From Calditrichia bacterium (GTDB lineage: Bacteria; Calditrichota; Calditrichia; RBG-13-44-9; J075): a DNA stretch of 64,000 nt. Positions 26,268 to 40,808 of the stretch are shown here, one piece after another; within the stretch, counting starts at the first letter, position 1, and each line of letters opens with the position of its first letter. The stretch spans positions 297,808-361,807 of the forward strand of contig JACKAQ010000001.1 in NCBI GenBank assembly GCA_020634975.1, in the 5' to 3' direction. A program made the translations under genes and the position numbers. The notes below the pieces were generated by a model, which saw only the letters and a list, made by a program, of their open reading frames with translations, had not been told where the DNA came from and did not search any database.

Positions 26268-26945
26268 TTATCCGCCGAACAACGCAAAACCGCGTCTCGC
26301 TTCGCGGACAAATGTTGCCACCTTTTCAGCAGATTTCCGACCGTCCTCAGCCTCGACGCCGGTGTGCACATCCACCGCAGCCGGACGAACGATGCGAATC
26401 GCATCGAACACGTTTTCGGGTGTCAGTCCGCCGGCGAGCATCAGCGGTTTTGGGGAAATCTCCACGAGTTTCCGGCTGATTTGCCAATCGTGGGTTTTCC
26501 CGGTGGCACCATCCGCGCCCGTTGCCGGATCGTGCGTATCCGTAATAAAACCATCGACCAACGGCGCGAGTGTTTGGGTCATGTTTTCCAACTCGCTCAA
26601 ATTATCCCCGCGAACGATGAGGCTTTTTAAAATAAACACATCCGGCGCGGATTTCCGCAATTGTTGCAATTCTGCAAGTTCAATATTTCCATGAATTTGC
26701 ACGGTTTTGGCGTGCAGCATTTTGCACAATTCCAAAATTTCCGCCGCCGTGTTGAGATAGGTAATCAACACGCCAGAACGATTTTCCGGTAGATTGGCGA
26801 TAATCGCCGCTGCATCTGCATCGTTGATATCTTCCGCATTTACGGTCAATCGCAGCGGAAAGCCGAGCCAATCCACGCCCGAATCGAGCAGCAGTTGCGC
26901 TTCCGCAGCATCAATGATGCCGGCAATTTGAATGATATGTTTCAT
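26268..26945 (-). CDS. trpF: N-(5'-phosphoribosyl)anthranilate isomerase
   Basis: MKHIIQIAGI...KLVEISPKPLMLAGGLTPENV is a TIM-barrel TrpF signature. The six-frame ORF runs further upstream to 27563 only because there is no in-frame stop. Confidence 0.75.
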   Translation of the reverse strand: MKHIIQIAGIIDAAEAQLLLDSGVDWLGFPLRLTVNAEDINDADAAAIIANLPENRSGVLITYLNTAAEILELCKMLHAKTVQIHGNIELAELQQLRKSAPDVFILKSLIVRGDNLSELENMTQTLAPLVDGFITDTHDPATGADGATGKTHDWQISRKLVEISPKPLMLAGGLTPENVFDAIRIVRPAAVDVHTGVEAEDGRKSAEKVATFVREARRGFALFGG

Positions 26946-27083: not shown

Positions 27084-28049
27084 ATGAGAACAATCTCCGA
27101 AACACAACTGGACGAAATATTTGGCATCGGCAGCGCCGTCACATTTAAACAAGTGATTGAAGAAGCGCGAATGCTGGCAAAAATTCCCCGCCCGATCATG
27201 ATTCAGGGCGAACGCGGAACGGGCAAGGAATTGCTGGCGCGCGCCATTCATTTGGAAAGCGACCGGAAAAAACAACCGTATGTTGTGGTCAATTGTGCTG
27301 CGTTTCAGGAAGATTTGTTTGCTGCGGAAATGTTTGGCCGGGAAAAAGGCGCGTACACCGGCGCTGTTGATTCGCGTCCCGGCAGACTGGAACTGGCCGA
27401 CGGCGGCACGCTGTTTTTGGACGAAGTGGCGAATATGAGCCGTGCGGTTCAGGAAAAATTGCTTCGCGTGATCGAATATCAACAATTTGAACGGCTCGGC
27501 GGCAGCAAACCGATTTCGGTGGATGTGCGGATTATTGCCGCAACCAACGCCAATCTCGATCAACTCATGGAAAAATCAGAATTTTTGCCGGATTTGTATG
27601 ACCGGTTATCGTTTGCGGTGCTCACTTTGCCACCGCTGCGAAAACGACGGGAAGATATCCCATCGCTGATCGAACACTTCATTTGTCAACTCCACAAAGA
27701 AATTCCCAACCTCGAACACAAATCGTTTACGCCTTCCGCGATTCAGGAACTCCAGAATTACCATTGGCCGGGGAACATCCGGCAGCTCAAAAACATCATC
27801 GAGCGCATTTATATTTCCGACGAAGACGGTACCATCAACGCATCGGAACTGCCGATCGAAATTACATCTGTGGAACCGATCCGCGGTAATTTCTACGAAA
27901 AAGTGCGCGCGTACGAAATCAACCTGTTGCTCAACTCGCTGAAAGATTTTGATGGCAACCAGCGCGCCGCAGCCGAAAATCTTGGGATGTCTTACGACCA
28001 GTTCCGCCACTTCTACAAAAAATACAAGTTGGAAGATTATCTGGTGTAA
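27084..28049 (+). CDS. pspF: Sigma-54-dependent transcriptional activator, AAA+ domain plus C-terminal HTH only (PspF-like, no receiver or sensor domain)
   Basis: It has Walker A (GERGTGKE), a GAYTGA loop (GAFTGA variant), Walker B (LFLDEV), an arginine finger region and a C-terminal Fis-type HTH. Confidence 0.85.
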   Translation: MRTISETQLDEIFGIGSAVTFKQVIEEARMLAKIPRPIMIQGERGTGKELLARAIHLESDRKKQPYVVVNCAAFQEDLFAAEMFGREKGAYTGAVDSRPGRLELADGGTLFLDEVANMSRAVQEKLLRVIEYQQFERLGGSKPISVDVRIIAATNANLDQLMEKSEFLPDLYDRLSFAVLTLPPLRKRREDIPSLIEHFICQLHKEIPNLEHKSFTPSAIQELQNYHWPGNIRQLKNIIERIYISDEDGTINASELPIEITSVEPIRGNFYEKVRAYEINLLLNSLKDFDGNQRAAAENLGMSYDQFRHFYKKYKLEDYLV

Positions 28050-28118
28050 AACACCGACACCGTTGGCGCAATACACCAACCCGATTTCATAAGTTCAATA
28101 AAAACAATAGATTTATTT

Positions 28119-28134
28119 TGGCATTCAGATTGCA
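28119..28134 (+). promoter_or_regulatory. Sigma-54 (-24/-12) promoter
   Basis: TGGCAT-TCAGA-TTGCA has exact consensus spacing (GG at -24, GC at -12). It lies 70 nt downstream of the activator gene and ~180 nt upstream of the next ORF. Confidence 0.55.
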
Positions 28135-28312
28135 ATATTATGGCATGAAGCCTGTGAAGGGGCTGTTAAATGACCAAAATAAATGACAATATGAAACAGA
28201 TTTCCAGAAATTGTCGGGCAGATTTTCTCACCGGAAGATTTCCGGTTTATCCGCGGCAATTGCTGAGAAATATCTTTTTCAACGAACAAGCTTGAGTTTT
28301 TTGGGGTGTGTT

Positions 28313-28732
28313 ATGGTGCAGCAAGACCGTTTTCAATATGAAATGAAGAACATTCTGGAAGCAAAAACATTGCTGGTTGTGCGGGCTGCAAAGCGCGTTC
28401 ACTACCGGTTGGGCAATGTTTCCGATCAAAAAAATTATCTGGATGCATTACAACGCGAATTTGAAGCGGATCATATTCGCTTCAAGAAAGAAGAACCGCA
28501 GCCGGAAGAAGACCTGCCCTCGCGAAGGCTAAAAAAGGATTATCTCTGCTTTGGCAACATGCTGGTGCGAACTATTAATGGTAATGTGATTCCCGAAAAC
28601 GATATTTTAAATTTTCGTAAAGAGCTGAAAAGATTAAACTTGCAATGCGGACTGATCGTAGGATTTTCGGATGACGGCATTGTCGTTGAACGGGTGACGG
28701 TTACAGAATCAAATAAACACAATTTATCCTGA
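28313..28732 (+). CDS. Hypothetical protein, first gene after the sigma-54 promoter
   Basis: It is a 139-aa ORF co-directional with the cluster. I recognise no domain. Confidence 0.4.
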   Translation: MVQQDRFQYEMKNILEAKTLLVVRAAKRVHYRLGNVSDQKNYLDALQREFEADHIRFKKEEPQPEEDLPSRRLKKDYLCFGNMLVRTINGNVIPENDILNFRKELKRLNLQCGLIVGFSDDGIVVERVTVTESNKHNLS

Positions 28733-28748
28733 GCAAACGGAGCACATC

Positions 28749-29282
28749 ATGAAAACAGTACCGCTATTTGAAGAAGAGCAGCAATTTCGCCAACCCTGGC
28801 TGATGGCGCTGCTCGGCATTACGGTGGCGCCGATTACACTGTTTTTGATTTATGTGATGATTTCGCAACTGGTTTTCGGAATTCCGGTTGGCAGCAAACC
28901 GATGCCGAACGCGATGGCCATCTGGTTCATGCCGTTGATGGTGTTGATTTGCAGCGGCATTATTTGGTTGTTTTGGAAAAGCAAATTAATCGTTCGCATC
29001 GATTCGGAAATGCTGCTTATCCGTTTTTTCCCATTCACGAAACGGGAAATACCGCTCTCGAAAATCCGGGAATTTGAAGCGCGGAAATACAATCCGCTCG
29101 GCGAATACGGTGGTTGGGGCGTACGATTGGGCTGGAAAGGCGGCAAAGCCTACACGGTCAGCGGAAATCACGGTGTTCAATTTGTGTTTCGTAATGGCGA
29201 AAAATTGTTGATCGGCTCGCAAAAAGCGACAGAATTTGAAGCTGCACTGCGGAGCGCTCTCGCTGAAAAAATAGACAAATAA
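28749..29282 (+). CDS. Membrane protein with 2 TM helices plus a C-terminal bacterial-PH-like domain (hypothetical)
   Basis: It has two N-terminal TM segments followed by a ~90-aa beta-rich domain. Confidence 0.5.
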   Translation: MKTVPLFEEEQQFRQPWLMALLGITVAPITLFLIYVMISQLVFGIPVGSKPMPNAMAIWFMPLMVLICSGIIWLFWKSKLIVRIDSEMLLIRFFPFTKREIPLSKIREFEARKYNPLGEYGGWGVRLGWKGGKAYTVSGNHGVQFVFRNGEKLLIGSQKATEFEAALRSALAEKIDK

Positions 29283-29332
29283 ATGTTTAATAATATTACA
29301 CTTACAACACTCATTTTTCGGAGGATTTTATC

Positions 29333-30055
29333 ATGAATATTTTTCAAAGAATCACAAAATTGGTCGAAGCCAACGTCAATTCGATGCTGGATAAAGCCGA
29401 AGACCCGGAAGTGATGGTTCGCCAAATCATTCGTGAAATGGAAGAAAGCATCATCGAATTGCGCCGCGAAACCGTAAAAGCCGTTGGCGCCCGCAAATTG
29501 CTGGAAAAGAAAATGCAGCTGCTCAATGAAAAATCCGCTGATCTCCAGCAAAAAGCCACACTCGCGCTGGAAAACGGAAACGAAGATTTAGCGCGCAAAT
29601 TGCTGGAACAAAAAATCGATGTCGAGAAAGAGAACAGCCAACTCGCAAATGAAGTAGAAACAGCAACTTATCTTGCCGAAAAAATGAAACAGGATTTGGT
29701 AAAACTGGAAGACCAGGTGCAAATTGCCCGTCGCCAAAAAGAGGAATTGATTCGCCGTAAACTCGCCGCCGAACGCAAAATGAACGCCACCGGCGCCATT
29801 CGCAAAACCCGCGATGCGTTGGAAGCGCTCACCGGTGCCACCAATAGTGCGGACGCGAATATCAACGCCATCGAAGCGCAAAAAGATAAAATTCTGCAAT
29901 TGGAAGCCGAAGCCGAGGCGATGGAAGAATTGATGGAAGGGAAATCCGCAGACGCCGAAAGCGAAAAAGAGCTGGAAAAAATGATCCAGAATAAAGCGGT
30001 GGAAGACGAATTGGCAAAGCTGAAAAAGATGCTCAGTGACGGCAAAAAAAAGTAG
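29333..30055 (+). CDS. pspA: PspA/IM30 (Vipp1/LiaH) family protein, paralog 1
   Basis: There is a GGAGG ribosome-binding site. The N-terminus MNIFQRITKLVEANVNSMLDKAEDPEVMVRQIIREMEE is followed by a long coiled coil, the typical PspA signature. Confidence 0.85.
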   Translation: MNIFQRITKLVEANVNSMLDKAEDPEVMVRQIIREMEESIIELRRETVKAVGARKLLEKKMQLLNEKSADLQQKATLALENGNEDLARKLLEQKIDVEKENSQLANEVETATYLAEKMKQDLVKLEDQVQIARRQKEELIRRKLAAERKMNATGAIRKTRDALEALTGATNSADANINAIEAQKDKILQLEAEAEAMEELMEGKSADAESEKELEKMIQNKAVEDELAKLKKMLSDGKKK

Positions 30056-30113
30056 CGAATTGAAACAGATCATAAAACCAATTTCGAGTAGCTAATTCAA
30101 TGGGAGAATCACC

Positions 30114-30734
30114 ATGTTAAAACTATACCTCGCCTGCCTATTATTTGGTGGCTTATTTATCATCATCTCCCTGTTTTTTGGCGCGGATGCTGACGCGGAA
30201 GCCGATGTGGATGTGGATGTTGACACTGACATCGACGTGGATACGGATGTGGAAATGGACGCCGACGCCGCAGAAGTCGAAGTTTCCGGCGAAGGTACTG
30301 TGGAAGCCATTAAATTTCTCAGCTTTCGCAATTTTGTGTTTTTTGTGGCCTTTTTCGGGCTCACCGGCAGCCTGCTCACCTGGATTGGCAGCAACTTTTT
30401 GTTGACGTTTGGCGCAGCCATTACGCTGGGATTTGTGGCGGCAACCGTTATGCATCGGGTGATGAAACAACTGGCGGCAACCGAAGTGGGCGAAACGCTG
30501 AATCTCGACCGGTTGGTTGGCATGCCGGCAAAAGTGACGATCAACGTTTCCCGGGATCATCGCGGCAAAGTATCGCTGGAAGCCGTCGGACAACGCATGC
30601 AGCTCCTCGCCCAAACGGCAGAAGAATCGGAACGCGATGAGTTCAGTGTTGGTGAATCGGTTTACATTTTGCACGTAAAAAACGGTATTGCATTTGTTGT
30701 GGAAGAAGCCTTTATCAACTCCGCAACCATTTGA
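30114..30734 (+). CDS. NfeD-like (YuaF-type) membrane protein with an acidic low-complexity linker and a C-terminal OB-fold
   Basis: It has an N-terminal TM segment, a DADAEADVDVDVDTDIDVDTDVEMDADAA tract, further TM segments and a C-terminal beta domain (KVTINVS...VGESVYILHVKNGIAFV). It lies directly upstream of the flotillin gene. Confidence 0.6.
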   Translation: MLKLYLACLLFGGLFIIISLFFGADADAEADVDVDVDTDIDVDTDVEMDADAAEVEVSGEGTVEAIKFLSFRNFVFFVAFFGLTGSLLTWIGSNFLLTFGAAITLGFVAATVMHRVMKQLAATEVGETLNLDRLVGMPAKVTINVSRDHRGKVSLEAVGQRMQLLAQTAEESERDEFSVGESVYILHVKNGIAFVVEEAFINSATI

Positions 30735-30784
30735 TCACCCGTTTATTTATAAATTCGCAGATGTAAAATAATGGAGGATGTCAC

Positions 30785-30982
30785 ATGATTACCAAAGATT
30801 ACCACCGCACATTATTTCTTTCGATGATTTTGATCGCCCTCGGTGTGTCGATTTCCACCACAATGGGGGATTCTTCGGGCACCATTGGCACGGTGATGAT
30901 CGCCGTTGGCGGCTTATTTTTTATCATCGGAATGACCAAAAGAAGAAAATTTGAACAAAAAAATCACCACCCAAAATCATAG
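30785..30982 (+). CDS. Small 2-TM membrane protein
   Basis: It has a GGAGG ribosome-binding site, 65 aa and two hydrophobic helices. Confidence 0.4.
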   Translation: MITKDYHRTLFLSMILIALGVSISTTMGDSSGTIGTVMIAVGGLFFIIGMTKRRKFEQKNHHPKS

Positions 30983-30993
30983 AAAGGTTAGCT

Positions 30994-31173
30994 ATGATAT
31001 ACGTTGGTTTACTGATTTTAGCTTATGTGGCGGTTTGTCTCTATCGCGGAAATTTGATTTGGGAATTGGGCGTTTCCCGCCGCAGTAACAGTCCTTATTT
31101 TTACTGGTTTGGTATCGGAACTTATTCGGTAGTCGCGCTGATGATGATTTACGCAGGCTACATAAATCTATAA
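30994..31173 (+). CDS. Small 2-TM membrane protein (59 aa), not in the ORF track
   Basis: An AAAGG ribosome-binding site precedes it. The sequence is MIYVGLLILAYVAVCLYRGNLIWELGVSRRSNSPYFYWFGIGTYSVVALMMIYAGYINL. Confidence 0.3.
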   Translation: MIYVGLLILAYVAVCLYRGNLIWELGVSRRSNSPYFYWFGIGTYSVVALMMIYAGYINL

Positions 31174-31228
31174 TAAACATTTGTTTGCAATTCAACTTAA
31201 CCAACTTAACTTTTAGGAGGGTTGTGAT

Positions 31229-32773
31229 ATGGATTTCATAAGTGCTATCATATTTATCGTTGTTATCCTCGCGGTTGTTGTGGTGATGATGGTCAGCCGC
31301 TTGCTGATTGTCTGCCATCCCAACGAAGTTGTGATACTTTCCGGACGCAAACGTAAACTGCCGGACGGATCGATTGTCGGTTACCGGCTCATTCGCGGCG
31401 GTCGCGCGGTGCGCATGCCGGTGCTGGAAAAAGCAGCCCGCATGTCGCTGGAATCGATTCCCCTGGAGCTTTCGGTGCGCAACGCGTATTCCAAAGGCGG
31501 TATTCCGTTGAATGTGGATGCCATCGCCAACATCAAAATTGATTCGACAGAACCGGCGTTCGGCAACGCGGTCGAGCGTTTTTTGATGAAACCGATGCAG
31601 GAAATTCACCAGATTGCGAAAGATACGCTGGAAGGTAACCTGCGCGGCGTGCTGGCATCGCTGACGCCGGAAGAAGTGAACGAAGACCGCCTGAAGTTTG
31701 CCCAAAGCCTTATCGAAGAAGCGGATAACGATTTGAACCAACTCGGTTTGCAACTCGATACGCTGAAAATTCAGAATGTCGCGGACGAAGCGGGATATCT
31801 CGATTCGATCGGTCGCCGCAAAACCGCCGAAGTGCTCTCAACCGCACGAATGGCAGAAGCCGCAAAAGCCGCCGAAGCGGAACAGGCAGAAGCGGAAGCA
31901 CGCCAGTTTGCGGAAATTGCCAAAGCCAAAGCAGATCAGGAAATTAAAGCGGCGCAAATTTCTGCGGATCGCGAAGTGAAGATGGCCAAAGCCCGCGCCG
32001 ATGCCGCAGCCCGTCAGGCGGAAGCGGAGCAGGAAGCCGTCGCAAAGGAAGCGGAAGCGACATCACTGCGGAAAGCTGAGGTCGCAAAAGCAATGGCTGA
32101 TCAGGAAATTCGCACATCGCAAATTAAGGCAGATCAAGAGGTTAAGGTATCTCGCGCTATTGCAGATCAACAGATCGAAACTGAGAACAACAATCTGCGT
32201 ATGAAAAAAGCGGAACTGGAACGCGAAGCCATTATCATGGAAAAAGAAGCGGAAGTTGCCGGACAAAAAGCCCAGGCAAAATACGAACAGGATATGGAAG
32301 AAGAACGCATTCTGCTGCAACAAAAACGCCTGATGGCAGACGTTATCGAACCCGCAAAAGCCAAAAAAGAAGCGATGGAGCTGGAAGCACGCGGCGAAGC
32401 TGCGCCGATTCTCGAGAAAGGTAAAGCGAACATCGAAGTGCTGGATCAGATGATCAAAACCTACCTCAGCGCCAAAGGTGAAGGCGAAAAAGTATTCATG
32501 CTGAACATGTTGCCGGATATTATCAAACAACTGTCCGACACGGTGAACAAGGTCACGATCGACAAAGTGAGTGTGATCGACAGCGGCGGAAACGGCAGCC
32601 ACGGCGTGGCAAATTTCATCAACCAGTTGCCCGCAGCAGTGGTTTCGCTGGCGGAACAGATCGAAAACGCCACCGGTGTGAACATCCTCAACCAGTTCAA
32701 ACAGAAACCGGAAATTGGTCAGATTGTCCACCACAACGGTGAGCACGACAAAGCGAAAGATGATGAGAAGTAG
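31229..32773 (+). CDS. floT: Flotillin (SPFH/Band-7 domain, FloT/YuaG-like)
   Basis: It has an N-terminal TM segment and an SPFH domain, followed by long Ala/Glu-rich EA-repeat coiled coils (AEAEQAEAEARQ...). Confidence 0.85.
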   Translation: MDFISAIIFIVVILAVVVVMMVSRLLIVCHPNEVVILSGRKRKLPDGSIVGYRLIRGGRAVRMPVLEKAARMSLESIPLELSVRNAYSKGGIPLNVDAIANIKIDSTEPAFGNAVERFLMKPMQEIHQIAKDTLEGNLRGVLASLTPEEVNEDRLKFAQSLIEEADNDLNQLGLQLDTLKIQNVADEAGYLDSIGRRKTAEVLSTARMAEAAKAAEAEQAEAEARQFAEIAKAKADQEIKAAQISADREVKMAKARADAAARQAEAEQEAVAKEAEATSLRKAEVAKAMADQEIRTSQIKADQEVKVSRAIADQQIETENNNLRMKKAELEREAIIMEKEAEVAGQKAQAKYEQDMEEERILLQQKRLMADVIEPAKAKKEAMELEARGEAAPILEKGKANIEVLDQMIKTYLSAKGEGEKVFMLNMLPDIIKQLSDTVNKVTIDKVSVIDSGGNGSHGVANFINQLPAAVVSLAEQIENATGVNILNQFKQKPEIGQIVHHNGEHDKAKDDEK

Positions 32774-32948
32774 GTTAAAAAAACCGCACCATCAGCATGA
32801 AACGCTTGTTCCGCGCTGATGGTGTGTTAAAACAAACGAAAACAAATATTTAGAAATACATCGAATTTTTCAAAAAATGAAAAAGAACAAGACTATTTCT
32901 GCCGGGTTGATGAAAGTATGAACAGAAAAAAACCTAAAACACTGAGCC

Positions 32949-33395
32949 GTGAAGATAGAGCTAAAAGGCGAAAAAGAGAGACTAATCAAACTCATTTTAT
33001 CAAAGCTATTCATCAGCCTTTTATTGGGGATGTTTAACGGTGCAGTTGTAGATAATATTAAAATAGGATTCTGGTCGGTTTTAATTTTCATAGCAACATT
33101 TACGGCTTCCTATTTTATTAGAAATTACATTCGTGTTCGACTTTATCTAACTGCTGTTCTATGGGGTTTGGTTTGGGGCGCATGTATGTCAGGTATCTTA
33201 ACACTCAATTATTACGGACGACATGGGTTCAGAGATGATACGATCGCATTAGCAATTATTATGCTTTTGGGTTATTCACTCATGTTCGTAATAGATATTT
33301 ATATTGGGAGACATGATTATATTAAACCAGATTTTCAGTCTTATGGTGAGTTTTACAAAAGCTGGTTCAATTATAAGTATCTTAAAAACAAATAA
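32949..33395 (+). CDS. Hypothetical 4-TM membrane protein in an AT-rich islet (GTG start)
   Basis: The ORF is 148 aa. The local GC (~33%) is far below the neighbours. Confidence 0.3.
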   Translation: MKIELKGEKERLIKLILSKLFISLLLGMFNGAVVDNIKIGFWSVLIFIATFTASYFIRNYIRVRLYLTAVLWGLVWGACMSGILTLNYYGRHGFRDDTIALAIIMLLGYSLMFVIDIYIGRHDYIKPDFQSYGEFYKSWFNYKYLKNK

Positions 33396-33427
33396 TTAGA
33401 CTCAAAATATTTGAAAGGAGCACAGTA

Positions 33428-33991
33428 TTGGGATTCACAAATTTTTTCAAAGGAAAAAAAGAAGGTGAAGAATTTGATCCACTACGGGACTTGACACTTT
33501 CAAAAATGAAGGTCGGGTATTTTGTTGAATTTGATCTGAAAACCTGGCAGGTTACCGCATACAATAAATACGATTTTGGCGACGGCTTATGGAGCGAGGA
33601 ATGGGAACTGACCTCCGGTCGCGAAAAAATCTGGCTGGAAAAACGCGAAGATGACGAAGTGGAATGGACCGTCAGCAAAAAGCTGCCAATCGGCGCAATT
33701 GCGGAAGATGTCCGCCAGCACGTCAAAGATTTCGACGATCCGCCGGGGCAAATTTCCGTGAAGGAAAAAACGTTTTATCTGGATGAATCCGGTTCGGTCT
33801 ATTATTATCCCGGTGGCAACACTCAACAACAGGGTCAGGGTATCATCGCATGGGAATATATTGATGATGACGATGAAAATTTTGTGAGCATCGAGCAATG
33901 GGGCGAGGATGATTTTGAAGCATCGCAAGGCTATTATGTGGAAGAATTTATGTTTAGCAACATCCTGCCGTCGGGGGACGCACAAGCTTGA
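33428..33991 (+). CDS. DUF4178-like protein (PspA-neighbourhood family)
   Basis: It has a TTG start after AAAGGAG. The sequence KVGYFVEFDLKTWQVTAYNKYDFGDGLWSEEWEL...IWLEKREDD fits the DUF4178 pattern as I recall it. It has an acidic C-terminus. Confidence 0.45.
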   Translation: MGFTNFFKGKKEGEEFDPLRDLTLSKMKVGYFVEFDLKTWQVTAYNKYDFGDGLWSEEWELTSGREKIWLEKREDDEVEWTVSKKLPIGAIAEDVRQHVKDFDDPPGQISVKEKTFYLDESGSVYYYPGGNTQQQGQGIIAWEYIDDDDENFVSIEQWGEDDFEASQGYYVEEFMFSNILPSGDAQA

Positions 33992-34102
33992 CGGAAGCAT
34001 GGATAAAGGATAAAGTAAATTTTTTGACTTTTTCAATATTAAACAATAAAAAACAACATTTCTAAATCAATAAAATACAAACACTTAAAAAAGGGGTTTG
34101 TT

Positions 34103-34819
34103 TTGAAAAAAACAATTACATTTGCACTTTTCGGAATTGTTGCGTTGCTGCTGTCGAGCTGCGGCGCATCGAATCCGGTTGAGAAAATGCAACGCGAGCT
34201 GGACGATTATCCGGAATATTCCATTATTCTGGAAGATATGAAAATGGAAGGCACTTTTTTTAAGGATTACTTTCATCAATATAAAATTATTCATGCGGAA
34301 AAAGCCGGTGATTCGCTGGCATATTTCACCAATCAAACAGAATGGATTTTGGTAGATGAAGATTTTTTCAGCAATTACCAACGGTATTTGGGAATGACAA
34401 TTGCATCCAAATCTGCTGAAGGTGATGTGAGCGACTCTCCGCAACCGCCGGGCTACCAATATGTTGGCGATGAACGCTACGGCCAATGGCGAACCGATAA
34501 CTCCGGCAACAGCTTTTGGGAATTTTACGGAAAATATGCCATGTTGCAGGCGCTGCTCGGCGGCTGGAATCGCCCGATTTATCAGGATGACTGGCGCGAT
34601 TACCGCACCTCCCGGCGCAACAATCAGCCGTATTTCGGCAAAAATCGCCAGTGGGGCACCGACGGAACCGCAACGAAAAAAACGAATCCAACATTTTTCC
34701 AACGCCGCCAAATGCGCGAGCAGGCGTCCAAACAATCCTTTACGGATAAGCTGAAACAACGCACACGCCGCAGTAATATGAGTAAATCCCGAAGCCGCAG
34801 CGGTGGTTTTGGAAAATAA
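34103..34819 (+). CDS. Lipoprotein with a basic C-terminal tail (possible DUF4247-type partner of DUF4178)
   Basis: It has a lipobox (LLSSC) and a Trp/Tyr-rich central region. The C-terminus is KLKQRTRRSNMSKSRSRSGGFGK. Confidence 0.5.
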   Translation: MKKTITFALFGIVALLLSSCGASNPVEKMQRELDDYPEYSIILEDMKMEGTFFKDYFHQYKIIHAEKAGDSLAYFTNQTEWILVDEDFFSNYQRYLGMTIASKSAEGDVSDSPQPPGYQYVGDERYGQWRTDNSGNSFWEFYGKYAMLQALLGGWNRPIYQDDWRDYRTSRRNNQPYFGKNRQWGTDGTATKKTNPTFFQRRQMREQASKQSFTDKLKQRTRRSNMSKSRSRSGGFGK

Positions 34820-34834
34820 ACAAATGAGGAAATA

Positions 34835-35017
34835 ATGAAACATAACGATCAAAATCAGGACAATAAAAAAGAAATGGGAAAATGGGTTGCCGTTGGCATC
34901 GCTATCGGAACGGCAATGGGCGTTTCGATGGATAATATCGGGCTTGGCATCTCGTTGGGTCTTGTGATCGGTCTGGCAATCGGCACAGTAAAATCCCGAA
35001 ATGATAAAACGGAGTAA
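34835..35017 (+). CDS. Glycine-zipper small membrane protein
   Basis: It has a GAGGAA ribosome-binding site. The sequence is WVAVGIAIGTAMGVSMDNIGLGISLGLVIGLAIG. Confidence 0.45.
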   Translation: MKHNDQNQDNKKEMGKWVAVGIAIGTAMGVSMDNIGLGISLGLVIGLAIGTVKSRNDKTE

Positions 35018-35020
35018 AAA

Positions 35021-35866
35021 ATGACTTTAGACCAAACCATATCCGGACTAATTTACCTTATTGCAGTGTTTATACTTTTTTGGCTGGGAAAAGTGGTTTA
35101 TGGAATAACCAATCCGCGCATCAATTTGCGCGATGAATTGGTGAAAAAAGATAATCTGGCGATGGCGCTGGCAGTGATCGGCTACTATTTCGGGCTGATT
35201 ATCGCGTTGGGTGGCGTGCTTTCCAGCGAATCCGCAGGATTGTTCATCGATCTGTTCGAAATATTTTTTTACGGCATTATTTCGATTGTCCTGATGAATT
35301 TTTCGATTAAAATCAATGACAAAATCATCCTCAGCAAATTTGACAATATCAAAGAAATTATCGATGATCAGAACGCCGGAACGGGCGTTGTGGAAGCGGC
35401 CAACCACATTGCTGTGGGCATGATTATCGCCGGCGCGATGAGCGGCGATTACGGCGGCTGGGCAACTGCGCTCACATTCTGGATTTTGGGACAAGCCGTG
35501 CTGATTGTCGCAGGCATTGTTTACGCCAAAATTCTGCCGTTCGATCTGCACGCGGAAATCGAAAAAGATAACGTTGCTGTGGGCGTTGCGTTTGCGGGTG
35601 TGCTGATCGCCATCGGCAACATCTTGCGCATCGGCTCCACCGGCGATTTTATTTCGTGGCAACAGAATCTCACCACGTTTTTCGGATTCGTCATATTCGG
35701 ACTGGTGCTGCTGCCGGTTTTGCGCTTTCTGACCGACAAAGTGTTGCTCCCCGGCGAAAAACTTACCGATGAACTGGTGAACCAGACAAATCCGAATATC
35801 GGTGCCGGTGCGGTGGAAGCGTTTGCCTATATCGGTGCGTCGTTTTTGATTGGTTGGGTTATATAG
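35021..35866 (+). CDS. Membrane protein with internally repeated DUF350-like units
   Basis: There are four repeats of N-x-A-x-A/G-x-x-x-x-G-x-x-I-A-x-G with TM helices: DNLAMALAVIGYYFGLIIALGG, NAGTGVVEAANHIAVGMIIAGA, DNVAVGVAFAGVLIAIGN and NIGAGAVEAFAYIGASFLIG. Confidence 0.5.
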   Translation: MTLDQTISGLIYLIAVFILFWLGKVVYGITNPRINLRDELVKKDNLAMALAVIGYYFGLIIALGGVLSSESAGLFIDLFEIFFYGIISIVLMNFSIKINDKIILSKFDNIKEIIDDQNAGTGVVEAANHIAVGMIIAGAMSGDYGGWATALTFWILGQAVLIVAGIVYAKILPFDLHAEIEKDNVAVGVAFAGVLIAIGNILRIGSTGDFISWQQNLTTFFGFVIFGLVLLPVLRFLTDKVLLPGEKLTDELVNQTNPNIGAGAVEAFAYIGASFLIGWVI

Positions 35867-35914
35867 CTGGTTTCTAGTTTCTGGTTTCTGGTTTCTGGAT
35901 TGAAGATTCTGGAT
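35867..35914 (+). repeat. Heptamer array TTCTGGT/TTCTGGA (x5, degenerate) immediately 5' of the four-helix-bundle gene
   Basis: The sequence is ctggtttctagtttctggtttctggtttctggattgaagattctggat. Confidence 0.6.
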
Positions 35915-35951
35915 GCTCTGAAAAATGTAAACTTAAGTGCAGAATGTGAAA

Positions 35952-36395
35952 ATGAGTTACAAAAAATTGCAGATATGGCAGCTATCTCGTGAAATTGTGA
36001 TTGATATTCACAAAATGACGCTGGAAACGTTACCAAAATTTGAGATGTTCGAAACAGGATCACAAATTCGCAGATCGAGCAAATCGACCAAATCTTTGAT
36101 TGTGGAAGGATACGGCAGGCGCTATTATAAACAGGATTTCATACGTTATTTATTGAATGCGCTCGCCTCTAACGATGAAACAATTGATCATTTAGAAACC
36201 CTTTTCGAAACAAAGTCTTTATCTGATTCAATTCTGTACGAAAACATACACGAACGGCTTATTTCTTTAGGTAAAATGCTCAACAATTTCATCAACTCGG
36301 TTCAAAAAAATCATCAGACACCATCGATTTATGTAAAGGAAGAAATGCCAGACTATCTGAATTTTCCGGAAACAAAAGATGACAAAACAGAATAA
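35952..36395 (+). CDS. Four-helix-bundle protein (TIGR02436, 23S rRNA intervening-sequence protein family)
   Basis: [59 protein letters not shown] matches the family. GC is ~33% against ~52% for the neighbours. Confidence 0.7.
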
Positions 36396-36451
36396 AATTT
36401 TTGCAAATATAGATTCGGAATCCAGAACTTGCGCTGAGCGCAGCCGAAGCG

Positions 36452-36481
36452 TCCAGAATCCAGAATCCAGAATCCAGAATC
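36452..36481 (+). repeat. Heptamer array TCCAGAA x4 (reverse complement of the upstream array) immediately 3' of the four-helix-bundle gene
   Basis: The sequence is tccagaatccagaatccagaatccagaatc. It is preceded by a further TCCAGAA copy and the near-palindrome GCGCTGAGCGC at 36421-36445. Confidence 0.6.
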
Positions 36482-36495
36482 TCTCCGGCAACTGG

Positions 36496-38013
36496 TTGCT
36501 GAAAGCCTGCATTTTCGCCACCGGGTTATCCGGAATTGTGGCGGAATACGTGATGTCCACGCTGGCGAGTTATCTGCTCGGTAACTCCGTTTTGCAATGG
36601 ACACTCACTATTTCCATCATGCTGTTTGCGATGGGCGTTGGCAGCCGTTTCAGCAAATTTGTGGATGACGCGTTGCTGGATGCCTTCGTTTTCACGGAAT
36701 TACTGCTCTCCGTTTTATGCGCGATCAGCGCTACAACTATCTATTTTTTATCGGCTTACATGAATCCGATAACACCGCTGATTTACACGCTGTCATTCGC
36801 AATCGGTTTGCTGATCGGGCTGGAAATTCCGCTGGCAACCCGTCTCAACGATTATTTTGAGGATTTGAAAATCAACATCAGTTCGGTAATGGAAAAAGAT
36901 TATTACGGCGCGTTGCTCGGCGGCTTGCTGTTTGCGTTTGTCGCCCTCCCCTACCTCGGTTTAACTTATACGCCCATTTTGCTCGGCGCAGTAAATTTTG
37001 CAGTCGCGGCGGCGCTATTTTGGCAGCATCGCGATTCGCTAAAATTTCCGAAAACACTCACTGCCGGATTTTTGATCGTGCCCGCCTTGCTCGGCGCATT
37101 GGCCGTTTCGGCGGAGCCGATTGTGCTGTATGGCGAGCAGCAAAAATATGTGGATAAAGTTGTTTATCAGGAGCAAACGCCCTATCAGCGAATTGTGATC
37201 ACTCAATTCAAAAATGATTACTGGCTGTATCTCAATGGAAATGAACAATTTAGCAGCTACGACGAACACCGCTATCACGAACCGCTGGTGCATCCGGCAA
37301 TGCTGGCGAGCGTTGCGCATAAAAATGTGCTGATTCTCGGTGGCGGCGATGGATTGGCTGCGCGGGAAATCCTCAAATATCCCGACGTCGAAAAAATTAC
37401 GTTGGTCGATCTCGATCCGGCGATGACGGAACTCGGCAAGAATTACCCGGTTTTTCGCCAACTCAACCAAAATGCGCTCAGCGATCCCCGGGTGCACATT
37501 CGCAACGAGGACGCATACACATTTTTGCAGCAAACCCGGGAAATTTTCGATGTGATTATTATCGATTTGCCCGACCCGAAAACCATCGAGCTGGCGCGAT
37601 TGTACACCCGGGAATTTTATCAATTGGCGAAACGTCAACTGTCCAAAGGCGGGATTGTGGTTACGCAAGCTGGCAGCCCGTTTTTTTCACGGGAAGCGTA
37701 TCTCTGCATATTGCAAACGATGCGAACTGCCGGATTGGCTGCGATTCCTTATCACAACCACATTCCAACACTCGGCGAATGGGGCTGGGTGCTGGCAATG
37801 AATGCGGAAATTGACGAAAATCGTTTGAAAAATCACCTGCTATCACTATCATTTGATGATTTGCAAACACGTTTTTTAAACCGGGACGCAATGGCGGCGA
37901 TGCTTCTTTTCGGCAAAAACGAACTGGCCGGTATCGATGCCATTCGCGTTAATTCTGAACTGGAACTCGCATTATTTGATTATTACAAAAATGGGTCGTG
38001 GGAATTTTATTGA
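36496..38013 (+). CDS. Spermidine/spermine-synthase-like aminopropyltransferase fused to an N-terminal polytopic (~7 TM) membrane domain
   Basis: The C-terminal domain has LILGGGDGLAAREILKYPDVEKITLVDLDP...DVIIIDLPDP, the SpeE fold motifs. The N-terminal 220 aa are hydrophobic helices. The start is uncertain: I use TTG 36496, and the open frame begins at 36379 inside the repeat. Confidence 0.7.
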   Translation: MLKACIFATGLSGIVAEYVMSTLASYLLGNSVLQWTLTISIMLFAMGVGSRFSKFVDDALLDAFVFTELLLSVLCAISATTIYFLSAYMNPITPLIYTLSFAIGLLIGLEIPLATRLNDYFEDLKINISSVMEKDYYGALLGGLLFAFVALPYLGLTYTPILLGAVNFAVAAALFWQHRDSLKFPKTLTAGFLIVPALLGALAVSAEPIVLYGEQQKYVDKVVYQEQTPYQRIVITQFKNDYWLYLNGNEQFSSYDEHRYHEPLVHPAMLASVAHKNVLILGGGDGLAAREILKYPDVEKITLVDLDPAMTELGKNYPVFRQLNQNALSDPRVHIRNEDAYTFLQQTREIFDVIIIDLPDPKTIELARLYTREFYQLAKRQLSKGGIVVTQAGSPFFSREAYLCILQTMRTAGLAAIPYHNHIPTLGEWGWVLAMNAEIDENRLKNHLLSLSFDDLQTRFLNRDAMAAMLLFGKNELAGIDAIRVNSELELALFDYYKNGSWEFY

Positions 38014-38089
38014 GAACCGATTGATAAACAACCTGATCAGCAAAATAAAATCGAATAGATAGAAGCCAAAAGCCAAGTGCCAAAAGCCA

Positions 38090-39100
38090 ATGAAAAATAT
38101 TGCCCATAACATTATCAAATTTGTCATCAAGGAAAACCTGCACCGCATTTTGCTGATCATGTTGTTGCTGATTGTTTTCGGTGCGGTGGGCATGGCGATT
38201 TTTGAGCCGAATGTCAATTGGGATAACGCATTGTGGTGGAGTATCGTCACGTTGACCACTGTCGGATATGGCGATATTGCGCCAACTACGTTCGGCGGGC
38301 GCATCGTTGGATCGATCATCATGATTTTGGGTATCGGCATTTTGGGGATGTTCACGGCAACCATCGCCAGCGTATTTGTGGAGCAAAAACTGAAAGTGAA
38401 TCGCGGAATGAGTAATTACGATTTCACCAATCACACGATTATTTGTGAATGGAATTATCGCGCCAAAGAAATTTTGAGAGAGCTGCGTTCAGACAGTCGC
38501 GTGCTGGATCAACCCATCATTTTGATCGCAGATATCGACGAAAAACCGGTGAATGACGAAAATCTCCATTTCATCAAAGGCGAAGTGGACGAAGCAAATT
38601 TGCAGCGCGCCAATATTGCGGCTGCAAAAACGGTCGTCATTCTCGGCGATGACAAATTGGATAACAACGCCCGCGATGCGCAAGTGGTGCTCGCTGCGCT
38701 GATTATCGAATCCATCAACCCGAGCGCTTACACAATTGTGGAATTGGTGAACGAACAAAACGTGGCGCATTGCCGTAAAGCGCATGTGGACGAAATTATT
38801 GTTTTAAATGAGTTTAGCAGCCGCCTAATTGCCCGCGCAGCGCTCGATCACGGTATTTCGAAAGTGATGAGCGAACTGCTCAGCGCCAGCACCGGCAACA
38901 ATTTGTATCAGGTGCCGGTGCCCCGCGAACTGGCAGATCAATCATTTCTGGTTGTGTTTTCGGAGATGAAACGCACCCGGAACAGCATTGTTCTGGCGGT
39001 GTATCGCCGGGATCAGGATATCGTAATTTCCAACCCGGATGTGGATTTGAAAGTAGCAGCGAACGACCAGTTGGTCATCGTTTCGCAAAACGAACAGTAA
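38090..39100 (+). CDS. MthK-like K+ channel (2TM pore plus RCK/TrkA-N domain)
   Basis: The selectivity filter is TLTTVGYGD, followed by an RCK Rossmann domain. Confidence 0.85.
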   Translation: MKNIAHNIIKFVIKENLHRILLIMLLLIVFGAVGMAIFEPNVNWDNALWWSIVTLTTVGYGDIAPTTFGGRIVGSIIMILGIGILGMFTATIASVFVEQKLKVNRGMSNYDFTNHTIICEWNYRAKEILRELRSDSRVLDQPIILIADIDEKPVNDENLHFIKGEVDEANLQRANIAAAKTVVILGDDKLDNNARDAQVVLAALIIESINPSAYTIVELVNEQNVAHCRKAHVDEIIVLNEFSSRLIARAALDHGISKVMSELLSASTGNNLYQVPVPRELADQSFLVVFSEMKRTRNSIVLAVYRRDQDIVISNPDVDLKVAANDQLVIVSQNEQ

Positions 39101-39114
39101 TTTGAGGTGATGAA

Positions 39115-39480
39115 ATGTCCCTTTTTTCGAGAATCGCAGGAATTATTCGCGCTAACCTGAATTTCCGGCGCGATGATGTTGACATCGACGATAGCGTTTA
39201 CGAAGAAATTCGTGATTCGCAGCGCGAATATCAACGCCAAAAACAGCAGCGCAACGATGCCAATCATCACCGGAATGACGATCCGTTGGCCAAACACTAC
39301 GCCAATCTTGAAGTGCCGTACGGCTCGGATCTGGAAACTGTCACCAAATCGTGGAAAGCGTTGCTGCGCAAATATCACCCGGATATTCATTCCGGCGATC
39401 CCGAAAAACAGAAAATTGCGAATCAACTTGTTCAGGAATTAAACCAATCTTATAATGAGTTGAAAAAAAAGTTACGCTAA
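39115..39480 (+). CDS. J-domain protein (C-terminal DnaJ domain) with a PspA-like N-terminal amphipathic helix
   Basis: The J domain is DLETVTKSWKALLRKYHPDIHSGDPEKQKIANQLVQELNQSY (HPD motif). The N-terminus MSLFSRIAGIIRANLN parallels MGIFSRIFKIF and MNIFQRITKLVEANVN of the two PspA paralogs. Confidence 0.65.
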   Translation: MSLFSRIAGIIRANLNFRRDDVDIDDSVYEEIRDSQREYQRQKQQRNDANHHRNDDPLAKHYANLEVPYGSDLETVTKSWKALLRKYHPDIHSGDPEKQKIANQLVQELNQSYNELKKKLR

Positions 39481-39556
39481 AAATTGATCATAAATAATTG
39501 TTTTCATTAGGATTAATCAACACAATTAATTCACTATTACAACAGGAGGCTAACGT

Positions 39557-39958
39557 ATGGCCATGTTTAGCAAATTCGAAATGGTTAAGGATTATTTAAT
39601 GGAACTCGGCTTTGCGATTATTCGCGAAGATGAGGATGAAGAGATCGTGGTTGTAAATGATCCCGATAATGGCATCAACAATATGGTCATCGATTGCGAA
39701 GACCCGATTGTGATTATGGAGCAATTGATTATGGAAGTGCCGGAAAAACCCGGTGATTTGTATGAAAAATTGCTGAAAATGAACCGCACACTGGTTCACG
39801 GCGCATTTGTGCTGGATGAAGAAGGCAAACGCGTTATTTATCGCGATACGCTGCAGTTGGAAAATCTCGATAAAAATGAGCTGGAAGCCTCGATTGTCGC
39901 GCTTTCCATGGGCATTGCAGAATTTGGCAGCGAGTTGCTGAAATACGCAAAACGCTAA
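39557..39958 (+). CDS. YbjN-like small acidic protein (candidate PspA-associated partner)
   Basis: It has an AGGAGG ribosome-binding site and 133 aa. It lies immediately upstream of the second pspA. Confidence 0.45.
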   Translation: MAMFSKFEMVKDYLMELGFAIIREDEDEEIVVVNDPDNGINNMVIDCEDPIVIMEQLIMEVPEKPGDLYEKLLKMNRTLVHGAFVLDEEGKRVIYRDTLQLENLDKNELEASIVALSMGIAEFGSELLKYAKR

Positions 39959-40021
39959 TTTTTTTATCGCTTAACTATTTGATAATATTTAATTTGAAAC
40001 CAAACTTCAGGAGATAAAAAG

Positions 40022-40741
40022 ATGGGTATTTTTTCGCGCATATTCAAAATTTTCCAGTCGGAGGCGCATTCAGTTGTGGATCAACTGGAAGATCCGATCA
40101 AATTGACCGAACAGGGCATTCGCGATTTGAAAAAAGATTTGGCGCAAGCCATGCGTAGCCTGGCGGAAGTGAAATCGTTGTCCATCCGCATGCGCAAAGA
40201 CGGCGAAGACCAGAAAAAGCTTGCTGCCGATTACGAACGCAAAGCCATGATGCTGCTCCAACGCGCCCAAAGCGGCGAACTGGACGCCGCAGAAGTTGAC
40301 CGTTTGGCAACCGAAGCGCTCACCAAAAAAGAAGATTCCTCACGCCGCGCACAGGAATTTATGACCAATCACGAGCAGCAGCAGAAAATGGCTGACCAGT
40401 TGCAGAACAAAGTGAACAAACTGAAATCTGCGATTTCCAAATATGAAAACGAGTTGGTCACTCTTCGCGCCCGCGCCCGCACTGCGGAATCGATGAAAAA
40501 AATCAACAAACAAATGGCGCAAGTTGATGCATCCAGCACCGTTGCGATGCTCGAAAAAATGAAAGACAAAGTGACCGAAGAAGAATCGCTGGCGGAAGCC
40601 TACGGCGAAATGGCCGACACAACCAAATCCGTTGACGAAGAAATTGACAAAGCGTTGGCGGGTGCGTCTGTGGATGCCGCAAAAGATTCGCTGGCAGCGC
40701 TAAAAGCCAAAATGGGCTTAAAAGAAGGCGATGCCAAATAG
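40022..40741 (+). CDS. pspA: PspA/IM30 family protein, paralog 2
   Basis: The N-terminus MGIFSRIFKIFQSEAHSVVDQLEDPIKLTEQGIRDLKKDL is followed by a coiled coil. Confidence 0.8.
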   Translation: MGIFSRIFKIFQSEAHSVVDQLEDPIKLTEQGIRDLKKDLAQAMRSLAEVKSLSIRMRKDGEDQKKLAADYERKAMMLLQRAQSGELDAAEVDRLATEALTKKEDSSRRAQEFMTNHEQQQKMADQLQNKVNKLKSAISKYENELVTLRARARTAESMKKINKQMAQVDASSTVAMLEKMKDKVTEEESLAEAYGEMADTTKSVDEEIDKALAGASVDAAKDSLAALKAKMGLKEGDAK

Positions 40742-40779
40742 TTGTTTTTTAATCAGTTGTAATTTTTTTAATAAAAAAA

Positions 40780-40808
40780 GGGGCGTATTTAACACACGCC
40801 CCTTTTTT
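40780..40808. terminator. Bidirectional rho-independent terminator
   Basis: A GGGGCGT...ACGCCCC hairpin is followed by T6. It lies between pspA2 and the convergent rfbC. Confidence 0.6.

Follow-up and report, generated by a model that had tools for sequence, protein, structure and literature searches.

Two conserved PspA modules side by side in a Calditrichia genome, with a predicted PspF/sigma-54 control region

A block of co-directional membrane-stress genes (27084-40741, + strand) was analysed in a 64,000-nucleotide stretch of DNA from a Calditrichia bacterium (contig JACKAQ010000001.1), referred to here as the window. The reading that we favour, and consider probable, is that the block consists of two separately conserved PspA modules that lie head to tail and whose joining is specific to this lineage. 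Module A (27084-32773) comprises the gene of a PspF-like activator, two predicted activator sites and a sigma-54 promoter, followed by genes for a small protein designated X, a DUF6141-like protein, PspA1, an NfeD-like protein and a flotillin. Module B (33428-40741) encodes a DUF4178 protein, a lipoprotein, a double-DUF350 protein, a membrane-fused aminopropyltransferase, an RCK K+ channel, a small J-domain protein (the J protein), a CesT-type chaperone and PspA2. An earlier note on this DNA had described the block as one integrated supercluster. That it is a functionally linked membrane-stress locus was borne out, in that each half is conserved as a unit and the two halves adjoin again in several Calditrichia-like genomes; the block proved, however, to be two modules and no single unprecedented array.

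Conservation of the two modules and the junction between them

Gene content was read from the open reading frames (ORFs) and from scans of the block with Pfam and NCBIfam hidden Markov models (HMMs). About 19 plausible ORFs were found between 27084 and 40741, every one on the + strand, as the earlier note had claimed. The same gene set was present in independent gene calls of public assemblies of the same species, and the nearest genome locus, on a Calditrichia metagenome-assembled genome (MAG) chromosome, encodes a DUF4178 protein that shares 97% identity with that of the window. Nearly all of the domains named earlier were recovered, and six ORFs had gone unmentioned: X, the DUF6141-like gene, two small transmembrane (TM) ORFs, a four-TM ORF and a gene of the 23S rRNA IVP family. 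Among the families that had been proposed for an HMM check, PspA_IM30, Band_7, DUF4178, DUF350, Spermine_synth and YbjN were all matched. DUF4247 was found nowhere in the block, and this assignment was rejected for the lipoprotein, which belongs to the Ctha_1186 family. No significant match, even at E values up to 10, was obtained in these scans for the lipoprotein, the small peptides or the four-TM ORF, nor any direct match for the NfeD-like ORF. The small TM ORFs, the four-TM ORF, the IVP gene and a Gly-zipper peptide were detected by tblastn, with which short ORFs are hard to detect, in this species only.

The block had been said to lie between two convergent flanks. This holds for the downstream flank; the upstream neighbour, a - strand PRAI/trpF gene (26268-26944), diverges from the activator gene. 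At its downstream end the block is closed by the strong bidirectional intrinsic terminator that had been predicted (40773-40808; AAAAAAA-GGGGCGT-atttaacac-ACGCCCC-TTTTTT), which was read in the sequence and folded. A generic terminator scan missed both this terminator and the hairpin at the junction of the modules; the two were identified by reading of the sequence and folding of the gaps.

Homologues of the DUF4178 protein were aligned, 80 genome loci were fetched with 10 kb flanks, and the window proteins were mapped onto them by tblastn. The loci, given here by L numbers where they must be told apart, include Calditrichia, KSB1, Acidobacteriota, Chlorobi-like bacteria, Binatia, Scalindua, Nitrospirota and Desulfobacterota. 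A colinear four-gene core of DUF4178, lipoprotein, DUF350 and SpeE-type transferase genes was found at 40 of the 80 loci, and all eight module B genes were colinear at 18. CesT-PspA2 was present at 63 loci, the K+ channel at 57 and the J protein at 26. The colinear form of module B was seen in MAGs of Calditrichia, KSB1, Acidobacteriota and Chlorobi-like bacteria and in further MAGs. K+ channel-CesT-PspA2-DUF4178 was a frequent order in Binatia, Scalindua and Desulfobacterota, with the lipoprotein-DUF350-transferase genes on the other strand (22 loci in total). PspA1 lay upstream of DUF4178 at 8/80 loci, PspF plus PspA1 at 6/80, and a flotillin between PspA1 and DUF4178 at 5/80; modules A and B adjoin in a few Calditrichia-like genomes only. 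At loci without module A there was no conserved sigma-54 promoter-like site upstream of DUF4178, and matches with one mismatch were scattered elsewhere.

Contexts of module A were obtained from exact-match look-ups of three X homologues. On independent contigs the order was a 321-aa activator, X, a 183-aa DUF6141-like protein, PspA, NfeD_TM and Band_7. Gene order was therefore conserved across phyla for module B and in several genomes for module A, answering the neighbourhood check that the earlier note had proposed, and conservation of this kind shows that the arrangement is not due to chance. The alternative, that unrelated membrane genes came together by chance or that the block is a mobile or defence island, would be in keeping with the mobile-looking IVP cassette of module B, with the RAYT-like gene and second IVP gene of L007, and with a GC content that varies along the window. 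The inserts, however, are strain-specific additions within a stable framework, the order of that framework is what is shared between genomes, and neither an integrase nor repeats flanking the block were noticed among the genes listed (no search for tRNA genes was made). We regard chance or an island as very improbable, and the defence or mobile island was rejected as contradicted by synteny.

The junction between the modules was folded with RNAfold, which predicted a strong hairpin at 32785-32826 (+ strand) with a 12-bp outer stem, preceded by an A7 run; the same hairpin was found in L007. It is possible that this hairpin acts as an attenuator or processing site. The window junction also has a 175-bp AT-rich gap, and in L016 a canonical bidirectional terminator lies between flotillin and DUF4178. 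The slot itself is hypervariable. In the window it holds the four-TM ORF (32949-33395, +), which was 71% identical in L001, where the neighbouring genes are 99-100% identical, and which was not detected in L007, where the gap is just 323 bp. In L008 and L011 the flotillin-DUF4178 slot contained long GC-rich inverted repeats with a REP-like look.

These features bear on whether the whole block is one integrated operon of about 19 genes, in which a single sigma-54 promoter would place the polyamine, K+ channel and PspA2 genes under PspF as well. All genes are co-directional, the internal gaps contain no + strand intrinsic terminator bearing a T-run, the terminator at 40773-40808 is the sole strong one, and modules A and B adjoin in 8 loci. 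The junction hairpin has no T-run (U-tract) after it on the + strand, and in L012, which is without NfeD and flotillin, the gap between PspA1 and DUF4178 is only 92 bp and has no strong hairpin. These last two observations weigh against a strict separation of the modules, and read-through, and hence sigma-54 control of module B, is therefore possible in some genomes. Set against a single operon are the majority of loci, in which module B occurs without PspF/PspA1 and without a conserved sigma-54-like site upstream of DUF4178; the canonical terminator of L016; the hairpin and AT-rich gap of the window; and the variability of a slot whose inserts differ among strains. The hairpin of the window and the terminator of L016 together make more than one transcription unit likely. 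We consider the single operon unlikely. Our conclusion is that, in this genome, the transcription of module A and that of module B are probably independent of each other, at least in part.

Module A and its predicted control region

The first gene of module A (27084-28049, +) encodes a PspF-like sigma-54 enhancer-binding protein of 321 aa with the domains Sigma54_activat (E 1e-61), AAA_lid_14 and HTH_8. The AAA+ domain begins at residue 16, with just 15 residues before it and no N-terminal sensor domain. Walker A is at residue 42 and the GAYTGA loop at residue 89, and the C-terminal Fis-type helix-turn-helix (HTH) is weak (HTH_8, E 0.0027). The best NCBIfam match was TIGR02974 (pspF) at 354 bits, below the 443-bit equivalog cut-off, and the best PDB match was E. 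coli PspF (8.5e-72). The earlier note had placed a sensor-less activator of this type first and a sigma-54 promoter after it. Indeed, a predicted -24/-12 promoter element, TGGCATtcagaTTGCA, was located at 28119-28134 (+), 70 bp past the activator stop codon, and is the sole match to TGGCAC-N5-TTGCW with one mismatch in the 64-kb window. Matches after the pspF stop codon or upstream of X were found in L007, L011, L012, L016, L018, L031 and L040, with the perfect consensus in L011, L018, L031 and L040, and similar promoter-like matches in the contigs L089-L092. Every relative with PspF or X carries a sigma-54 promoter-like element at the equivalent place.

Two palindromic upstream activator sites were predicted from the aligned relatives, TGGTGtaaaaCACCG at 28042-28056 and TGGCGcaataCACCA at 28064-28078 (both +). 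The first overlaps the pspF stop codon, their centres are 22 bp apart, and they lie 41-77 bp upstream of the promoter element at 28119. Equivalents of the form TGGYG-N5-CRCCA were seen in the aligned control regions of eight loci. On the module A contigs, the regular expression for the site gave one match each in L089, L091 and L092 (3/4) and no match in L090. In the window the pattern had seven matches against 1.97 expected, a number reached in 0 of 100 shuffles. Judged from sequence, a sigma-54 promoter with activator sites is thus present ahead of pspA.

Three further features of this region were recorded. An extra match to the site, TGGCGATAATCGCCG, lies within trpF, the divergent neighbour, at 26795-26809, some 290 bp before the activator start, and could be an autoregulatory site or a chance match. 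The distance from the predicted sigma-54 start to the X start codon (28135-28312) is about 165 nt here and in L007; L012, L016 and L040 have a much shorter distance from promoter to X. For the 263-nt intergenic region before X, the predicted folding energy is -68 kcal/mol.

The first protein encoded downstream of the promoter, X (28313-28732, +), is soluble, 139 aa long and resembles a divergent GxxExxY/PDDEXK_3 protein. Both family matches were below their cut-offs: TIGR04256 was matched with E 5e-5 (23.7 bits; cut-off 35) and PF13366 (PDDEXK_3) with E 1e-3 (19.7 bits; cut-off 22). The position of the E-x-K motif was unconserved in the alignment of the X family. An initial homologue search gave two relatives, and an exhaustive search found 19 among 1.84 billion representatives. 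X belongs to a distinct small family that is related to GxxExxY/PDDEXK_3. It stood directly after the PspF gene or the promoter in 9/9 contexts inspected and is a dedicated member of module A. The next gene (28749-29282, +) encodes a protein with two TM helices that scored 25.3 bits against DUF6141 (E 1.5e-5), under the 27-bit cut-off; a 50%-identical homologue occupies the same position in L091, and the gene was also found in L008.

PspA1 (29333-30055, +) matched PspA_IM30 with E 9e-34 and E. coli PspA (4whe) with 4e-18. Against TIGR02977 it scored 119.6 bits (equivalog cut-off 243), compared with just 53.4 bits for PspA2, and PspA1 is the more classical of the two paralogues. The two are 25% identical, in agreement with the earlier claim of two divergent PspA/IM30 paralogues.

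The NfeD-like protein (YuaF/YqiJ-type; 30114-30734, +) was recognized by its predicted structure. In its AlphaFold (AF2) model (pLDDT 80.5), three TM helices and an acidic D/V-rich linker precede a beta-barrel at the C-terminus. The top four Foldseek matches in the PDB were all NfeD proteins (YbbJ, YuaF, PH1510-C and 3cp0), with target-normalised TM-scores of 0.71-0.84 for three soluble-domain structures and 0.37 for full-length YbbJ. NfeD (PF01957) was matched by 7 of 34 homologues of this ORF, and some homologues carry PF25842 (NfeD_TM). The model thus predicts the OB-like beta-barrel of NfeD at the C-terminus, behind the TM helices. The linker between TM1 and TM2 (30196-30267) contains a D/V/A/E-rich acidic tract, DADAEADVDVDVDTDIDVDTDVEMDADAAEVEV, that is encoded by a 30-nt tandem repeat. 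It is disordered in the model (pLDDT <50, residues 26-59), and an acidic tract is also present at this position in the consensus of the homologue alignment.

The flotillin (31229-32773, +; Band_7 9e-13) has an SPFH/Band_7 domain, a long coiled coil and an N-terminal anchor. It aligned with the FloT model over residues 7-487 at 187 bits, a score so far under the 700-bit equivalog cut-off that the protein is better called flotillin-like than a FloT orthologue. The NfeD-flotillin pair that had been claimed was therefore recovered with NfeD identified by structure only, Band_7 by HMM and FloT below threshold. Two small TM ORFs of 65 and 59 aa (30785-30982 and 30994-31173, both +), with tblastn matches in L001-L007 only, are inserted within the pair. 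The start-to-start distance from NfeD to flotillin is 1115 bp here and about 750-770 bp in relatives.

Module A shares with the E. coli pspF/pspABCDE system a sensor-less NtrC-type AAA+ activator with a Fis-type HTH and, at the level of sequence, activator sites and a sigma-54 promoter with pspA in the regulated operon. In contrast to the divergent pspF of E. coli, pspF is co-directional here and its stop codon overlaps the first activator site. PspB, PspC, PspD and PspE are replaced by X and the DUF6141-like, NfeD and flotillin proteins, and PspF and PspA1 are both under the equivalog cut-offs. In having a three-TM NfeD-fold protein upstream of a flotillin, the module also resembles other NfeD-SPFH pairs (B. 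subtilis yuaF-floT, E. coli yqiJK and QmcA-YbbJ). An NfeD-fold/flotillin pair beside PspA recalls the 'first group' of Ravi et al. 2024 (PMC11237479), in which CesT/Tir-PspA is associated with band-7/flotillin and YqiJ/YuaF. Unlike these systems, module A has neither a CesT partner nor a beta-propeller AAA+ ATPase, is under predicted PspF/sigma-54 control and, in this species, has the two small TM ORFs inside the pair. According to Popp et al. 2022 (PMC9239133), descriptions of the PspF regulator had been confined to Enterobacteriaceae.

Module B and a J-domain protein with a PspA-like N-terminus

Among the operon groups described by Ravi et al. 2024 (PMC11237479), module B belongs to the second, which is made up of CesT/Tir-PspA, a TM-fused spermine synthase, DUF350-8TM, the Ctha_1186 lipoprotein and DUF4178 and is exemplified by Shewanella SO_3765. 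All five defining components were found within 33428-40741. The module differs from the published group in its order, with DUF4178 first and CesT-PspA last; in its chaperone, which is of the CesT_Tir_1/YbjN type and not DUF2170; in the lack of a ribbon-helix-helix (RHH) regulator; in its RCK K+ channel, which that paper lists for the third group only; and in its J protein, the main text and one supplementary file of the paper containing no mention of a J domain, DnaJ, Hsp70 or DnaK.

The earlier note had likened these genes to E. coli yjfIJKLMC, which typifies the 'third group' of the same paper; operons of that type have DUF2491, DUF1190, an ATP-grasp enzyme and a K+ channel. Both indeed have a DUF350 protein, a polyamine-related enzyme and a homologue of PspA that is paired with a member of the CesT superfamily, and yjf-type relatives such as Alteromonas also have a K+ channel. 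The enzyme here, however, is an aminopropyltransferase and not glutathionylspermidine-synthetase-like, and DUF350 is doubled. Equivalence with yjfIJKLMC was rejected because DUF2170, DUF2491, DUF1190 and an ATP-grasp enzyme are all absent, no ORF of the block giving a Pfam match to any of them and PspA and DUF350 being the only families in common, and the second group (Shewanella SO_3765) is the fitting archetype.

All five of the proteins that the earlier note had listed from DUF4178 to the SpeE-like enzyme were present. The DUF4178 protein (33428-33991, +; 7e-24) is soluble, with two beta-meander halves. The lipoprotein (34103-34819, +) has an LSSC lipobox and is 48% identical (E 5e-84) to the Chloroherpeton thalassium gene beside Ctha_1187, that is, Ctha_1186. 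The Gly-zipper TM peptide of 60 aa (34835-35017, +) was found in L001-L007 only. The polytopic double-DUF350 protein of the YjfL family (35021-35866, +; DUF350 6e-51, two repeats) gave seven TM peaks in a crude hydropathy scan. The membrane-fused polyamine aminopropyltransferase (36379-38013, +; Spermine_synth 2e-44) has a multi-pass N-terminal domain of about 250 aa followed by a SpeE-type catalytic domain at residues 296-478. Its motifs GGGDG (residue 321) and DLPDP (residue 396) are intact, and it scored 605 bits against NF002956, above the 472-bit cut-off, in an alignment that starts at residue 28. Its PDB matches include thermospermine and spermidine synthases.

The remaining three calls of the earlier list, the RCK-gated K+ channel, the J-domain protein and the YbjN-like protein, were supported by HMMs. 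The K+ channel (38090-39100, +) combines two TM helices, with the intact filter TVGYGD at residue 57, and a cytoplasmic RCK domain (Ion_trans_2 2e-17, Slo-like_RCK 9e-9, TrkA_N 8.5e-6). The gene of the CesT/Tir-type, YbjN-like chaperone (39557-39958, +; CesT_Tir_1 1.4e-51, YbjN 5e-11) immediately precedes that of PspA2 (40022-40741, +; PspA_IM30 3e-42), the divergent paralogue, which matched solved Vipp1/PspA structures along its full length; the two genes are neighbours at 63 of the 80 loci.

The composition of the module raises the alternative that it serves mainly housekeeping polyamine biosynthesis and K+ homeostasis, its link with PspA2 reflecting general membrane localisation. In keeping with this, the transferase is above the NCBIfam equivalog cut-off and keeps its catalytic motifs, and C. 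thalassium retains only DUF4178-Ctha_1186-DUF350-SpeE, with no PspA nearby. Yet CesT-PspA2 accompanied DUF4178 at 63/80 loci, and this linkage was kept even where the lipoprotein-DUF350-SpeE genes had switched strand. The transferase, moreover, carries a fused polytopic membrane domain and invariably occurs with the lipoprotein and DUF350, which is atypical of cytosolic spermidine synthesis, and the parts of the window with gene annotation showed no SpeD. We consider the housekeeping explanation improbable.

The J protein (39115-39480, +) is only 121 aa long and is predicted to consist of an alpha0-like helix, a polar linker and a C-terminal J domain. It matched DnaJ with E 5.3e-8 (33.3 bits; cut-off 27.8), its best NCBIfam match was DjlA, and the HPD motif at residue 88 is conserved in its 25 homologues. 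Its N-terminus, MSLFSRIAGIIRANLN, resembles helix alpha0 of PspA, which reads MNIFQRITKLVEANVN in PspA1 and MGIFSRIFKIFQSEAH in PspA2, and is conserved in most of the 25 homologues, from several phyla. A position-specific scoring matrix (PSSM) was built from 68 PspA N-termini and run against a background of 2443 ORF N-termini. Consistent with the resemblance, the N-terminus of the window's J protein scored higher than nearly all of the background, and 14 of the 25 J-protein N-termini outscored all but one of the background sequences. A phmmer search of PDB sequences with the 26-residue N-terminus gave no match, the query being too short. The PspA-like helix suggests that the J protein recruits DnaK. 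Hsp70 and the J protein CDJ2 have been linked to VIPP1 in the chloroplast literature, as has DnaK to Vipp1 in cyanobacteria. In work ascribed to Liu et al. 2007, the CDJ2-HSP70B system reportedly assembles and disassembles VIPP1 oligomers. The likeness to that system is that of a putative J-domain co-chaperone dedicated to a polymer of the PspA/IM30 family. Unlike CDJ2, the J protein of the window is small and encoded in a pspA operon, and it has a PspA-alpha0-like helix in place of the client-binding region of CDJ2.

Between the DUF350 and transferase genes lies a cassette (35867-36481, +) that resembles an intervening sequence (IVS). Its gene (35952-36395) encodes a four-helix bundle of the '23S rRNA IVP' type (23S_rRNA_IVP 8e-24; TIGR02436 2.8e-25, above the cut-off) and is flanked by inverted heptamer arrays, (CTGGTTT)x4.6 and (TCCAGAA)x4.3. 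The cassette arms at 35886-35917 and 36448-36479 are 84% complementary. As in rRNA IVSs (TIGR02436/PF05635), an ORF of this family lies between inverted repeats able to form a long stem; in contrast to those, the cassette sits among the protein genes of an operon and not in rRNA, and its flanks are tandem arrays of heptamers. Residues ~25-35 of the annotated transferase are encoded by the downstream arm, and since the arm thus falls within the annotated N-terminus and the NF002956 alignment begins at residue 28, the true transferase start may be the TTG at 36496.

Other inserts were seen in relatives. In L007 a RAYT/IS200-like gene lies between PspA1 and NfeD (L007 6448-7029), and a second IVP-family gene with GCCAATAGC-type inverted repeats lies between the transferase and the K+ channel (L007 14601-14960). 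At the corresponding place the window (38063-38090) has only an (AAGCCAA)x4 array, which could be an empty or remnant insertion site. The DUF350-transferase junction was an insertion hot spot in several lineages, with inserts identified by eye: a 522-aa ORF on the opposite strand in L010 (12450-14018, -), a transposase-looking ORF of 399 aa in L025 (12260-13459) and a lipoprotein-like ORF of 190 aa in L035 (6507-7079). Elsewhere in the window, an ORF of 3585 aa (2766-13523; 10.7 kb) with cadherin-like and Big_9 repeats is unrelated to the cluster; in the matching assembly L088 an extracytoplasmic-function (ECF) sigma factor gene lies near it. On the far flank, a look-up of the 742-aa ORF at 50895-53123 gave no matching record.

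Proposed mechanism and significance

On the reading of two separately conserved modules, the following mechanism is proposed by analogy with characterized Psp systems. The sensor-less activator would bind the two palindromic sites that overlap and follow its own stop codon and turn on the sigma-54 promoter, driving X, the DUF6141-like protein, PspA1, the NfeD-like protein and the flotillin. PspA1, as in E. coli, would keep the activator inactive until membrane damage pulls PspA1 to the membrane, and induction would then add PspA1 and an NfeD-flotillin scaffold. In module B, PspA2 would be partnered with the CesT/YbjN-type chaperone and the J protein. The alpha0-like helix may bring the J domain to stressed membrane or to assemblies of PspA2, and the J protein could recruit DnaK to build up or take apart these assemblies. 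The co-encoded transferase, double-DUF350 protein, Ctha_1186 lipoprotein, DUF4178 protein and RCK channel may couple membrane remodelling to the modification of polyamines or other amines and to K+ flux. PspA1-gated induction through PspF would thus be combined with a PspA2 unit aided by CesT, the J protein and DnaK.

Several observations weigh against this mechanism. Residue W56 of PspF is a determinant of PspA binding in E. coli. It aligns with K62 of the activator, so that the interaction between PspA1 and PspF is not simply transferable. No block ORF gave a Pfam match to PspB or PspC, and the fold of the DUF4178 protein yielded no functional clue. SpeD, which produces decarboxylated S-adenosylmethionine (dcAdoMet), was, like rpoN and dnaK, not seen in the gene-annotated parts of the window. 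Module B lacks the J protein in Binatia, in Scalindua and in most of its Acidobacteriota versions, so that this protein is not obligatory.

A more specific proposal concerns the J protein, and we put it forward tentatively, as something short of an even chance. The J protein may be a dedicated adaptor whose copy of alpha0 sits at PspA2 polymers or damaged membrane and recruits DnaK as the ATP-driven motor for assembly or disassembly of a bacterial ESCRT-III, and which in Calditrichia was placed beside a PspF/sigma-54 switch whose operon starts with X, a new and probably catalytically dead PD-(D/E)XK-like protein.

Much of what surrounds these proposals was already known. Calditrichia belong to the FCB group, and the earlier statement that such a system had not been characterised there was too strong: PspA has published links with flotillin-YuaF and with polyamine genes, and the lipoprotein domain takes its name from a Chlorobi gene. 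Nearly all of the components had been catalogued by comparative genomics in 2024. Experimental data are unavailable for a related six-gene operon (PMC10948618), and none on polyamine-type PspA operons were found in the literature searched. New are the joining of the two modules, a PspF/sigma-54 control region defined at the level of sequence outside Proteobacteria, X, and the alpha0-like J protein; the IVS-like cassette within the cluster is a further addition. With most of its gene associations published, the locus is mainly a well-documented instance to which a few new details are added.

These details bear on a general question. In every domain of life, membranes are repaired and remodelled by PspA/Vipp1/ESCRT-III proteins, and for most bacteria two issues stand out, namely how PspA polymers are regulated beyond Enterobacteria and what supplies the energy for their assembly and dismantling. 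For the first, the locus offers a clean, sequence-defined switch of PspF, sigma-54 promoter and activator sites outside Proteobacteria. For the second, a compact J protein with a PspA-like helix is a possible route from PspA to DnaK. The physical joining of a flotillin-type and a polyamine-type PspA module supports the idea that the two act in one shared pathway. If the proposal for the J protein is true, the J protein and DnaK would do in bacteria what Vps4 does for ESCRT-III and CDJ2-HSP70B does for VIPP1.

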